From the NCBI GenBank assembly GCA_020341815.1, contig CP070837.1, positions 628,211-692,210 on the forward strand: a DNA stretch of 64,000 bases, written 5' to 3'. The notes under the pieces were generated by a model. The model was given only the letters and a program-made list of their open reading frames with translations, was not told the origin of the DNA and did no database searches. Origin of the DNA: Candidatus Omnitrophota bacterium. Its GTDB lineage: Bacteria > Omnitrophota > Gorgyraeia > JAFGHF01. Position numbers and translations under genes: made by a program. Positions 58,846 to 60,857 of the stretch are shown piece by piece; within the stretch, counting starts at the first letter, position 1, and each line of letters begins with the position of its first letter.

Positions 58846-58985
58846 AATCCTCCCTCTAAAGCACCCTTATTTATACCAGAAATTAGCCCAAAAAGCAATA
58901 GAATTACACTTGTTGGATAGAAAGGGGGTATTACAGAATAAGTAAGGAAGGTGGTGGTGACTTTGTGGCGACTTTGTGATTACAC

Positions 58986-59014
58986 TTGACAAATACCTAG
59001 TAATGAGGTATACT
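58986..59014 (+). promoter_or_regulatory. consensus sigma70 promoter TTGACA-17-TATACT on the plus strand, facing a terminator about 120 nt away
   Basis: Read directly: cacTTGACAaatacctagtaatgaggTATACTtg. Confidence 0.55.
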
Positions 59015-59020
59015 TGAATT

Positions 59021-59142
59021 ACTTGAAAGATGCAGAAACGCATTCCTTCCTATCTAGTTGGCGGAGAAGAGGGTGTTGACGCCTGCATATAAAGCCAACA
59101 AAAATAAAACGTCCAGATAGTTACATAACTGGGCGTTTTTTA
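59021..59142 (+). ncRNA. candidate small RNA (about 120 nt, promoter-to-terminator unit; contains a possible 20-aa ORF MQKRIPSYLVGGEEGVDACI with poor RBS spacing)
   Basis: Bounded by the promoter above and the hairpin ACGTCCAG-N12-CTGGGCGT + TTTTTTATT at 59108-59142, which also serves as terminator for the convergent minus-strand gene. Confidence 0.35.
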
Positions 59143-59913
59143 TTGTTCGTAACGTTGCCACTTCTCAATATATTGTAATAAATCAAAATAATCAAACATT
59201 GGATATTCTGTTTCAAATGTTAGTTCCTGCAAATCATATTTTCTTCTTGCCATTACTATAAAATAATTCGTATGATATTTCTCTACTGCACTATCCTCCT
59301 CATCTAAAAATTCATAAGGGATCTTAAATGTGCTAACATAAAAGTATTCTATACATTTAAATCTAGGCTTATTGAGCATATAAATTTCGTTTGATTTTAG
59401 TAATGTTGGGATTACCCAAGGTAACCTTCTTGCTCTATAAGTCCTATAATACTCGGGTGCTATCTTATGTCTTCCTGTTATTTCATCTTTATAAAAACAA
59501 TCTAGGGCTCTTTCAGGAATTATGATTTTTCTTTCATATATATCAAATATTTCTTTTTGACACATTTTATCAATGAAGTATAATTGTGCTTCTTCGCATT
59601 TTATATCTTTCTTTAAAAGCCTAGCTTCTTTATTTGCAATGAGTTCGGTTCTCTTTGTAACATGAAAATGGGCCATTTGTACAATAAAGCTTATATCTCT
59701 TGCATTTAAAGTTCTACCAAGACGATTTTCTCTCCAATAGGCAAGCTTTGCGGTAATGAAAAAAAGCGCCTTTAGGGTTTCTTCGCTGCGCAGACCCAGA
59801 GACTTAAAAAGACTATCAAAATCTTTATTTTTTACCTGTTTCGTAATTTTGTAATCTAAAATATCGTCTTCCATATTGCTATTATACACCCAAACAAAAG
59901 CCCTCTGCAACAT
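59140..59913 (-). CDS. hypothetical protein (257 aa; probable start at the second or third Met), in AT-rich DNA, no recognisable domain
   Basis: ORF only; visibly lower GC than the housekeeping genes. Confidence 0.45.
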   Translation of the reverse strand: MLQRAFVWVYNSNMEDDILDYKITKQVKNKDFDSLFKSLGLRSEETLKALFFITAKLAYWRENRLGRTLNARDISFIVQMAHFHVTKRTELIANKEARLLKKDIKCEEAQLYFIDKMCQKEIFDIYERKIIIPERALDCFYKDEITGRHKIAPEYYRTYRARRLPWVIPTLLKSNEIYMLNKPRFKCIEYFYVSTFKIPYEFLDEEDSAVEKYHTNYFIVMARRKYDLQELTFETEYPMFDYFDLLQYIEKWQRYEQ

Positions 59914-59994
59914 ATTATATTACAGAAGGCTAACAAAATTATAAGGTTACAACACTTAATTACTTCAAAATAGAAGCGTCCCTTTTCTACTTTT

Positions 59995-60651
59995 CTAAAT
60001 CATACCTTCTTCGCCTTTCGCTTTAGATAGTATCTCTTCAATAGGAACTCTTTTGGCCATTTCAAGTAATTCGTCCCTGTCCATAAGCCTTATACCGTTT
60101 TCTCTCGCATATCGTGTTGCTTCGCTAGAAAAATAACTTAAAGTAACAAACATCATACCGTCTGCTGTTTTATCCAACATAGCGCCTTGAAGCTCTTGTA
60201 ACGCAGGTCTTCCTACAAGATTCCCCTTGGAAAATTTTTTTACTTGGACAACAAATGTTTTGCCCTCCCTTTGCGCAAGTATATCTACTCCTCTATCGCC
60301 TGTTTTCCTCGTTACTGAACAGGCGTATCCGTGTGCCTTCAAAATTTCCGCAACAGCTTTTTCAAATTCAAAAGGAGTTAGTCTTGCCAAAGACTTCCCT
60401 GCAGATATCTCTTCTGTCTTCTTAGATTGAAAATCGACTTTCTGTTTTTTATAAGCTATCTCGCTATATATCCAAACTCCCAATACAAAAACAATGAAAA
60501 TATTGGCTGCAATCTGTGAAAATACTCCAACTACAAAGTAAATAATCAGAAAAAGAGATAGAAGAAGCGGAAGAGCAAAACAACCTCTAAGCACAAACTT
60601 GAAAGGCCCCCACACTATTACATTAGGCTCTGGCTGTTTTTCGTTATTCAT
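59995..60651 (-). CDS. membrane-anchored Mrr-like restriction endonuclease domain protein (PD-(D/E)xK fold, Mrr_cat)
   Basis: Two N-terminal TM helices, then FEFEKAVAEILKAHGY...TGDRGVDILA...VVQVKKF...VGRPALQELQG. Confidence 0.65.
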   Translation of the reverse strand: MNNEKQPEPNVIVWGPFKFVLRGCFALPLLLSLFLIIYFVVGVFSQIAANIFIVFVLGVWIYSEIAYKKQKVDFQSKKTEEISAGKSLARLTPFEFEKAVAEILKAHGYACSVTRKTGDRGVDILAQREGKTFVVQVKKFSKGNLVGRPALQELQGAMLDKTADGMMFVTLSYFSSEATRYARENGIRLMDRDELLEMAKRVPIEEILSKAKGEEGMI

Positions 60652-60857
60652 TTCTTCTTATTCCTTTAATAATAAGCCACCCTACCTCGCTTTTCCAAAT
60701 TCTGGCAAATTCTGGGGATATAACACTTGTAGAATTCTAGAATTCCGGGGACAGCTCACTTATTTCCAAAGCGAAGCTTTGGAAACCACAAACCCTTGCC
60801 CTATTAGATAATAAGACAAGGGCGCAACTTGGTCTCACCAAAATTGTTCCACAATTT

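Follow-up and report, generated by a model that had tools for sequence, protein, structure and literature searches.

What does the AT-rich segment between a transfer-messenger RNA (tmRNA) gene and an amidase-MurI-QueD-QueC block in the genome of a Candidatus Omnitrophota bacterium encode, and do its two genes belong together? The segment lies in a 64,000-nt stretch of contig CP070837.1 ("the window", to which all coordinates refer unless stated otherwise). A sequence-only reading of the window had proposed that it may carry a novel two-gene defence system, i.e. a membrane-anchored Mrr-like nuclease and an accompanying protein of 257 aa. Our analyses point to a different organization. The segment, from about 58846 to about 60830, is best explained as an acquired islet in a variable spot between the tmRNA and the amidase-MurI-QueDC genes, with two candidate immunity modules, each a single gene transcribed on its own, that adjoin each other without being partners. 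We assign this reading a probability of roughly 55%.

Gene order and composition of the segment

On the minus strand, the gene order in the 5′ to 3′ direction is SmpB, tmRNA, an open reading frame (ORF) of 218 aa, an ORF of 257 aa, amidase, MurI, QueD, and QueC. A tRNA-Leu(CAG) gene sits beyond SmpB, on the opposite side from the tmRNA. The features of the segment and its flanks are:

57748-58845, minus strand: lipoprotein N-acetylmuramoyl-L-alanine amidase (Pfam Amidase_3, 9e-55), first gene of the amidase-MurI-QueD-QueC block and core flank of the segment
58846-59108, no strand assigned: AT-rich non-coding spacer reaching the amidase start (no Rfam match)
59109-59136, minus strand: weaker terminator-like hairpin with a U-tract, right behind the stop codon of the 244-aa gene (folding free energy (dG) -12.7 kcal/mol, z -2.1)
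59140-59874, minus strand: gene for a 244-aa protein of a rare family, with the start taken from homologues (257 aa if the ORF is read to 59913)
59899-59931, minus strand: intrinsic-terminator-like hairpin between both genes, with a 15-bp perfect stem followed by the U-tract UUUUGUUUGGG (terminator scan, folding)
59995-60651, minus strand: ORF of 218 aa, Mrr_cat nuclease (Pfam PF04471)
60792-60823, minus strand: second G+C-rich hairpin, followed by UUUGUGGUUU (terminator scan)
60836-60862, minus strand: hairpin of the native tmRNA terminator (CCAAAATTGT/ACAATTTTGG), which reaches into the CCA end (12-bp perfect inverted repeat; folding)
60858-61266, minus strand: tmRNA gene (ssrA), core gene with the islet at its 3′ side (ARAGORN; Rfam RF00023, 170.3 bits, E value 1e-68, full length)
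61320-61838, minus strand: SmpB

The AT-rich two-gene cargo described by the sequence-only reading is indeed present. The G+C content of the segment is 35.4%, compared with a mean of 44.5% (standard deviation 3.4%) for stretches of equal size, which places it in the lowest 2.7%. The G+C fractions at third codon positions (GC3) are 0.31 for the 218-aa gene and 0.24 for the second gene, versus 0.47-0.54 for the flanking core genes. A 58-aa ORF inside the spacer (58846-59108) has no support from Pfam or PHROGs.

The 3′ CCA end of the tmRNA (60858) faces the segment, and the alignment of this end with six Omnitrophota tmRNAs holds up to the CCA. The cargo had been placed right after the CCA, but the native terminator comes first. 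This hairpin is also present in a relative, locus L019, behind the distal of two copies of the tmRNA end, and it is therefore ancestral and not island DNA, so that foreign DNA begins at about 60830 or below. The hairpin at 60792-60823 is either a second tmRNA terminator or the leftmost island sequence. Together, the two tmRNA-side hairpins (60862-60836 and 60823-60792) fold with a dG of -38.1 kcal/mol (z -6.7). Strong terminators had been claimed for both flanks, which is true of the tmRNA side, whereas the hairpin behind the second gene is weaker and the one between the two genes had gone unmentioned. The latter (59931-59899) has a dG of -20.1 kcal/mol and a z of -5.06, with 0 of 200 shuffles folding equally well, and it covers the first ATG (59913) of the 257-aa ORF. 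As the homologues begin at M14 of this ORF, position 59874 is the most likely start of the second gene, whose product would then have 244 aa.

The segment is an insertion at the 3′ side of the tmRNA gene

A scan based on SmpB yielded 80 related loci. tRNA-Leu, SmpB, and tmRNA were found together in L015, L019, L021, L022, and L062; SmpB-tmRNA was seen in L013, and tRNA-Leu stands beside SmpB in L011, L046, and L071. The order in L015 is tRNA-Leu, SmpB, tmRNA, 30 nt, and amidase-MurI-QueD-QueC-QueE-QueF. The gap between tmRNA and amidase in the amidase-MurI-bearing relatives L019 and L062 is about 270 nt and about 150 nt, respectively. The amidases of the window and of L015 (33% identity) are orthologous, as are the MurI proteins (56%). 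Because the amidase block directly follows the tmRNA in L015, L019, and L062, the approximately 2 kb of the window are an insertion, i.e. the segment is horizontally acquired cargo at the 3′ side of the tmRNA gene. The sequence-only reading had asked whether the same genes occur at this locus in relatives; both are missing there in these three. The same arrangement was found with 100% identity in a separate Logan assembly (L009), which argues against an assembly artefact.

Pfam and PHROGs searches of the islet revealed only two real ORFs and no integrase or recombinase. The last 60 nt of the tmRNA aligned with the islet, on both strands, with a score of 18, compared with 17.0 +/- 1.9 for shuffles. 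The exact 13-mer of the tmRNA 3′ end has a single occurrence in the window, and a repeat search of the islet was also empty, in agreement with the earlier statement that a clean direct repeat could not be found. A weak resemblance to the tmRNA end at 58946-58968, offered at that time as a hint of the distal boundary, was ruled out as a remnant of an attachment (att) site, as it falls in a local 11-nt tandem repeat (GTGGCGACTTT, 2.3 copies, 58954-58978) in the spacer before the amidase. For the right boundary, the tmRNA-amidase spacers of the relatives were compared with the islet, and local alignments were at chance level beyond the native hairpin.

The segment shares several properties with integrative islands that target tmRNA or tRNA genes, i.e. 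the position right 3′ of ssrA (foreign DNA within about 30-65 nt of 60858), the deviant composition, and the absence from relatives. Unlike them, it has neither an integrase nor a duplication of the tmRNA end, and the native terminator is in place, so a classical tmRNA-integrated element was rejected. The earlier view of cargo at a tmRNA integration hot-spot thus holds for the insertion but not for the mode of integration. L019 contains the tmRNA 3′ end (at least 16 nt) twice between tmRNA and amidase, at 2245-2260 and 2409-2424 of that locus, with a distance of 164 nt. The duplicate looks like the att scar of a past integration into ssrA, and would indicate that integration at the tmRNA 3′ end does occur in this lineage.

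The two genes are probably neighbours and not partners

We recovered 12 distinct genomic contexts of the 244-aa family, eight of which contain restriction-modification (RM), defence, or candidate-defence genes. Leaving aside the population of the window itself, every context has a different upstream neighbour. The L005 gene lies 10 nt behind hsdS and in the same orientation, within an HsdR-Fic-HsdM-HsdS type I RM array. The upstream gene in L007 encodes a phospholipase D (PLD) nuclease fused to a helix-turn-helix (HTH) domain, which matches the DrmC models, and that in L090 a DUF4145 protein matching PD-T7-4, beside a DUF4258/DUF2283 pair and a tRNA-Met gene. L092 contains a type III Mod-Res pair and a 153-aa protein with predicted transmembrane (TM) segments (7485-7946 of that locus). 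In L001, a 166-aa unknown protein (7473-7973 of that locus) is encoded upstream, followed by a Bro-N protein matching PDC-S13 (3e-116), while L099 has a divergently transcribed PDC-S02 nuclease (3e-163), type I RM genes, and a PIF1 helicase. RM genes adjoin the family member in L092, L093, and L099. The member in L004 is part of a Prim-Pol/D5 primase element, and that in L101 has ketoacyl synthases as neighbours. The 166-aa and 153-aa upstream proteins are unrelated to each other and have no PADLOC match. The 153-aa protein has predicted TM segments like the upstream gene of the window, so that, given the small number of loci, a recurring membrane-protein neighbour is conceivable.

An all-against-all BLAST of the ORFs of 15 loci retrieved no homologue of the Mrr protein in the 14 other family loci, and only RM methylases and RadC were neighbours common to several loci. 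The lack of a shared Mrr gene, the terminator hairpin between the two genes, and the existence of solitary genes of the same type as the Mrr gene (see below) make two independent modules the best reading. A conserved pair of the Mrr and 244-aa genes was rejected on the grounds of the hairpin and the BLAST result, and the novel two-gene pair of the sequence-only reading is likewise not supported. A defence role of the islet is plausible because of the Mrr_cat nuclease domain, the RM and defence neighbours of the 244-aa family, and the matches of this family to PDC-M04B. The suggestion of a candidate defence island is thus retained for the individual genes but not for a paired system.

A predicted membrane-anchored Mrr-type nuclease

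The 218-aa protein matches Mrr_cat (PF04471) with 107.8 bits (cut-off 21; 4.4e-31) over residues 89-198 (nt 60058-60387), which correspond to profile positions 2-114 of 115. The motif GVD...VQVK is intact (TGDRGVDIL...FVVQVKK), and its D...(Q/E)xK residues correspond to the catalytic ones of the Mrr_cat family. Aligned plasmid homologues carry the corresponding motif GDFGADL...VQAKRY. A hydrophobic run of 51 residues (17-67, nt 60451-60603), flanked by K/R, is sufficiently long for two TM helices according to hydropathy, in accordance with the two N-terminal helices and the Mrr-catalytic domain that had been described before. Apart from this TM hairpin, the N-terminus contains no Pfam domain and no winged-helix. 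Judged from its sequence, the protein is a catalytically intact predicted DNase that is probably membrane-bound.

PADLOC models matched the nuclease domain only (PDC-S02, 3.2e-21; the Mrr part of ZorD, 1.5e-18; mREase_IV, 2e-11). The PDC-S02 match is partial, covering with 73.9 bits residues 77-198 on profile positions 182-305 of 334, i.e. the nuclease domain alone. PHROG 17577, "restriction endonuclease", also matches the protein. At a strict E value limit of 1e-10, a search of a database of 5.8 billion sequences recovered solely the identical protein (P0084) of a Candidatus Omnitrophota metagenome-assembled genome, annotated "restriction endonuclease". After this search, the distribution was judged from plasmid records, 383 of which match the 218-aa protein. 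Among them are solitary TM+Mrr_cat genes with unrelated neighbours, which encode e.g. 189 aa with two TM helices (L102) or 232 aa with one. Such genes are common on plasmids, and a TM-tethered Mrr is therefore not the unusual architecture it had been taken for.

The protein resembles these small "restriction endonuclease" proteins (PF04471; Bacillota plasmids, e.g. WP_242176458.1 of Priestia koreensis) in having one or two N-terminal TM helices in front of Mrr_cat, in size (189-232 aa), in the solitary position with varying neighbours, and in sequence, with 28-37% identity across the nuclease domain and part of TM2. It differs in that this identity is low and that none of the plasmid genes was seen adjoining a member of the 244-aa family. 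To our knowledge, none of the plasmid proteins has been characterised experimentally. With E. coli Mrr and other type IV modification-dependent enzymes, the window protein shares Mrr_cat with D...QxK and the match to the mREase_IV models. In contrast, the N-terminal winged-helix DNA-binding domain of E. coli Mrr is replaced by the TM hairpin.

The closest mechanistic precedent, by analogy and not by homology, appears to be SNIPE (PD-lambda-1), a membrane-bound nuclease that cuts phage DNA during injection and whose TM anchor holds a GIY-YIG nuclease off the chromosome and at the site of phage DNA entry (bioRxiv 10.1101/2025.11.03.685801). Both are encoded by a single gene, have an N-terminal TM segment predicted or known to anchor a DNase at the inner membrane, and would use location as the logic of self/non-self discrimination. 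SNIPE contains DUF4041 and GIY-YIG in about 500 aa, whereas the window protein has neither feature, is of the PD-(D/E)xK type, and comprises 218 aa. By analogy, the two-helix TM hairpin would hold the Mrr_cat PD-(D/E)xK DNase at the inner membrane on its cytoplasmic side, would keep it away from the nucleoid, and would place it where phage or plasmid DNA enters the cell, a principle that has been demonstrated by experiment for SNIPE.

A rare protein family with a candidate RNase domain

The 244-aa protein has no match in Pfam, PHROGs, PADLOC, or NCBIfam. It had been described as a domain-less protein of 257 aa, which needs correction with respect to the length; a match to a housekeeping family, mentioned then as a counter-argument, was found in neither Pfam nor NCBIfam. 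In a database of 5.8 billion sequences, the family accounts for 17 clusters; in one of 1.84 billion representatives, it accounts for 67. An alignment of 51 family sequences (A1) was the basis of the results below, while pattern scans were made with a tighter alignment (A3). A profile search with A1 added few further members, none of them annotated by Pfam. D111, R147, and Y179 are invariant, and K129, H136, R150, W153, and T222 are nearly so, with a conservation of at least 90% for H136 and T222. The family was not found in phages and plasmids by tblastn with the window protein or in PHROGs, nor did the relative P0026 match any plasmid; a pattern scan of IMG/VR also retrieved no relative.

Links to known domains come from the relatives. 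Six of the 51 match PBECR2 (PF18810) at E values of 0.1 or lower, all below the gathering score; the best match is that of P0026 (residues 121-232, E value 2e-4, 22.0 bits versus a cut-off of 27.1). Sub-threshold matches to LPD3 were obtained for two of the 51. PDC-M04B of PADLOC is matched over the C-terminal domain by 25 of the 51 relatives (best value 8e-10), including P0018 (41% identical to the window protein, 7e-4) and P0020 (36%, 4e-5). The window protein itself matches neither PBECR2 nor, at E values up to 1, PDC-M04B. Neither the Mrr protein nor any of 10 neighbours examined at other loci matched a PDC-M04A model. Five of the 51 relatives (P0029, P0034, P0035, P0047, and P0063) have a PilZ domain in addition at the N-terminus (best E value 5e-10), which hints at control by cyclic di-GMP (c-di-GMP) or a related nucleotide in some versions.

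An AlphaFold2 (AF2) model based on the 51-sequence alignment had a mean local confidence (pLDDT) of 94.1 and a predicted TM-score (pTM) of 0.88. It consists of helices up to about residue 75, a mixed region, a helix (151-160), and four long antiparallel strands (163-169, 174-190, 196-212, and 218-226), with T222 on the fourth strand and H136 in a loop before the helix. This corresponds to an N-terminal helical domain (about 1-75, nt 59650-59874) and a C-terminal PBECR2/PDC-M04B-like domain (about 105-230, nt 59185-59562). In a Foldseek search of BFVD, the best structural matches were LPD3 and polyvalent proteins (probability 0.96-1.00), while Foldseek against the PDB gave nothing significant and recovered no solved BECR structure.

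PBECR domains have been defined as predicted RNases of the BECR fold, with an N-terminal helix, four or five strands, and a His together with a Ser/Thr on strand 4; the descriptions of PBECR2 and LPD3 come from polyvalent proteins of phages (Iyer et al. 2017, PMC5512222). The AF2 model fits this helix-plus-strands core definition, and the conserved H136, in the loop before the helix, and T222, on strand 4, may correspond to its His and Ser/Thr (PMC5512222). A PBECR2-like RNase is the most likely function of the 244-aa protein, to which we give about even odds; this refers to the function and not to family membership. The likeness to PBECR2 and LPD3 (PF18798) comprises the predicted helix and four strands, the sub-threshold matches of relatives, the best BFVD structures, and possibly the conserved His and strand-4 Thr. 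In contrast to these domains, the window protein is a stand-alone host protein with an extra N-terminal helical domain, and its family occurs in chromosomal defence-type neighbourhoods and not in virion-delivered polyvalent proteins.

The PDC systems of PADLOC are candidates that were chosen for their embedding in BREX, DISARM, or type I RM loci (Payne et al., bioRxiv 10.1101/2024.01.29.577857). The PDC-M04 cassette is FAM_00014>>FAM_00043, with an A gene of family FAM_00014; regarding the identity of PDC-M04A, the supplements of the paper give family numbers alone (bioRxiv 10.1101/2024.01.29.577857). In addition to the C-terminal matches, the 244-aa family has in common with this candidate system that the L005 member, right behind hsdS, is an embedded gene in the same sense. 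It differs in its N-terminal domain of about 90 residues, which is not included in the PDC-M04B models (151-206 positions), and in that no A partner was found beside the window gene or among the neighbours tested.

In a PDB sequence-profile search, the N-terminal helical region (residues 7-65, nt 59680-59856) matched only designed armadillo repeats (E value 6e-8, one repeat length). This could reflect a real armadillo-like peptide-binding repeat or a compositional match to consensus-designed helices. The absence from the PDC-M04B models, the weak armadillo match, and the PilZ domains of five relatives suggest that the N-terminus is a regulatory or sensor module. No supported small ORF for an antitoxin was found beside the 244-aa gene, which has hairpins on both sides. 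A fused antitoxin-like domain at the N-terminus is possible, and fused toxin-antitoxin BECR proteins encoded by single genes are known in defence (PMC11980606).

The second module would thus combine an N-terminal helical, possibly armadillo-like domain with a C-terminal BECR-fold domain related to PBECR2/PDC-M04B that carries the conserved polar set D111, K129, H136, R147, R150, Y179, and T222. We infer that it may be a metal-independent endoRNase, which is kept inactive by or switched via the N-terminal domain and which upon infection would cleave RNA, leading to abortive infection or growth arrest. Of the two modules, the 244-aa family attracts more interest: it occurs rarely, its fold is predicted with confidence, its members are found in defence islands, and its connection to PBECR2 and PDC-M04B is a distant one. 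A bolder proposal is that it founds a new rare family of host single-polypeptide abortive-infection RNases, with a PBECR2-like BECR domain, an armadillo-like sensor or auto-inhibitory domain, and c-di-GMP-gated PilZ variants, which would act as a second line beside restriction nucleases, including a membrane-tethered Mrr DNase that attacks DNA at entry. We regard this combination as doubtful.

Alternative explanations

Several findings weigh against two acquired, independent immunity modules. The empty sites were seen in the closest relatives only, which are nonetheless distant (SmpB identity 60-65%), and the islet has no integrase or att repeat that would account for its acquisition. PDC-M04 and PDC-S02 are "guilt-by-embedding" candidates, the roles of both proteins are computational predictions, and the contexts L101 and L098 contain no defence genes. 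The links of the 244-aa protein to PBECR2 and PDC-M04B are transitive, the Pfam PBECR2 matches (22 versus 27.1 bits) being all sub-threshold. In addition, H136 precedes the helix in a loop and does not lie within it, and the putatively toxic RNase lacks an evident antitoxin or immunity gene.

The two genes might nevertheless form one functional two-gene defence or abortive-infection system, e.g. with a membrane-bound Mrr protein that senses or cuts entering DNA and signals to, or is backed by, a 244-aa effector. They lie side by side in one orientation, separated by only about 120 nt, and have a common deviant composition; the arrangement recurs in L009, and the L099 member adjoins a different PD-(D/E)xK nuclease (PDC-S02). 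However, the complete identity of L009 shows that it stems from the same population and does not represent independent conservation, and the L099 nuclease is transcribed divergently. With a strong terminator hairpin between the genes, no Mrr homologue in any of 14 other family loci, and upstream neighbours that vary from HsdS, a PLD nuclease, and DUF4145 to unrelated 153- and 166-aa proteins, we consider such a system quite unlikely. A looser connection would be that of a PrrC-like guard, i.e. the 244-aa RNase is silenced by the adjoining restriction nuclease (type I, type III, PLD, or here Mrr) and freed when a phage anti-restriction protein disables this nuclease. PrrC is the textbook case, the related PDC-M04B was identified through its embedded position in RM, BREX, or DISARM loci, and both the hsdS-linked gene of L005 and the RM genes of L092, L093, and L099 would agree with it. 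Yet the nucleases next to the family members have no structural relationship with each other, a point against a specific inhibitory contact, and L001, L090, and L101 offer no nuclease at all. The terminator between the window genes and the lack of an ABC-ATPase or other PrrC-like regulatory domain also make a guard improbable.

Two further explanations dispense with host immunity. The islet might be what is left of a phage or integrative element that had integrated at the tmRNA att site and then decayed, and its genes might serve the element in offence, anti-defence, or addiction. The duplication in L019 shows that tmRNA 3′ ends are used as att sites in the lineage, and an att-flanked toxin-antitoxin islet is present at the neighbouring tRNA-Leu (see below). 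PBECR2 and LPD3 are domains known from polyvalent proteins of phages (PMC5512222), the L004 member resides in a primase element, and PHROG families match the Mrr protein. However, the 2 kb contain no integrase, att repeat, or other phage gene, the 244-aa family has no match in IMG/VR (pattern scan), GenBank phages, plasmids, or PHROGs, and its contexts are mostly chromosomal defence-type neighbourhoods, so that an element remnant is unlikely. Alternatively, both could be ordinary host genes with an incidentally low G+C content, e.g. for a membrane nuclease involved in DNA uptake or repair and a housekeeping protein. A ComEC gene is located nearby, and another low-G+C stretch of the window (21-24.6 kb) also encodes metabolic genes (acyl-CoA ligase, B12-radical SAM, acyl carrier protein (ACP)). 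This explanation is highly improbable in view of the absence of both genes from the syntenic locus of three relatives, the extremely rare and patchy occurrence of the 244-aa family, the lack of housekeeping matches, and the dominance of RM and defence genes in its neighbourhoods.

Implications

Small AT-rich defence islets beside a tmRNA or tRNA gene are a well-known pattern, and this part of the finding is ordinary; the "novel pair" is unsupported. If two independent immunity modules are indeed present, they would be two compact single-gene candidates from the Omnitrophota, a phylum that has hardly been studied by experiment. With the TM-anchored Mrr protein, discrimination by location as in SNIPE would be known for the very common PD-(D/E)xK/Mrr fold as well, and a function could be proposed for hundreds of plasmid genes annotated merely as "restriction endonuclease". 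Similarly, RNase domains of the PBECR type, so far described as phage weapons, would be used by hosts as well, and the 244-aa family would provide the first handle on the PADLOC candidate PDC-M04B.

A second islet and further features of the window

A second AT-rich islet (61948-62893, GC3 0.20-0.25) contains a HigB/Gp49-HTH toxin-antitoxin pair between tRNA-Leu and ComEC. Its features are:

61874-61960, plus strand: tRNA-Leu gene, flank of the second islet
62006-62335, minus strand: HTH antitoxin
62379-62744, minus strand: Gp49/HigB-like toxin

A direct repeat of 13 nt without mismatches, CGCTTCCGCACCA (61948-61960 and 62881-62893), which corresponds to the 3′ end of tRNA-Leu, bounds this islet; its distal copy falls inside the end of ComEC. 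In the relative L011, the tRNA-Leu gene is directly abutted by ComEC, without the toxin-antitoxin pair. In contrast to the islet at the tmRNA gene, the second islet is a textbook att-flanked insertion. In L021, L022, and L046, the amidase-MurI-QueD-QueC block lies beside tRNA-Leu, instead of following the tmRNA as in L015, L019, and L062. The tRNA-Leu-SmpB-tmRNA unit thus has the opposite orientation with respect to the adjoining DNA, which points to recombination in the vicinity of these RNA genes.

The tmRNA tag peptide predicted by ARAGORN (60858-61266) is ASSNRVAGLQLAKATPCLAGVSLSAETLN, which is wholly unlike the tags of the six Omnitrophota relatives (...ATVNELLSTMQVVPGPVLPVALPL). The predicted tag peptides of the window tmRNA and of the six relatives are all unusually long; the resume codon or frame may be mis-assigned in the window or in the relatives. 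Five copies of the 7-nt sequence TATCTAG form a tandem repeat at 61269-61304, starting 3 nt upstream of the tmRNA 5′ end (61266), and seven copies of TCTA are located at 62784-62811, just upstream of the HigB-like toxin gene. Both repeats could be regulatory or slippage-prone elements.

The other strongly low-G+C stretch of the window (about 21000-24600, G+C fraction 0.34-0.35) contains genes for an acyl-CoA ligase, a B12-binding radical SAM enzyme, and an ACP fusion protein, and it has a 2-hydroxyacyl-CoA dehydratase-like gene beside it. This stretch could represent a lipid or secondary-metabolite cassette that was acquired.

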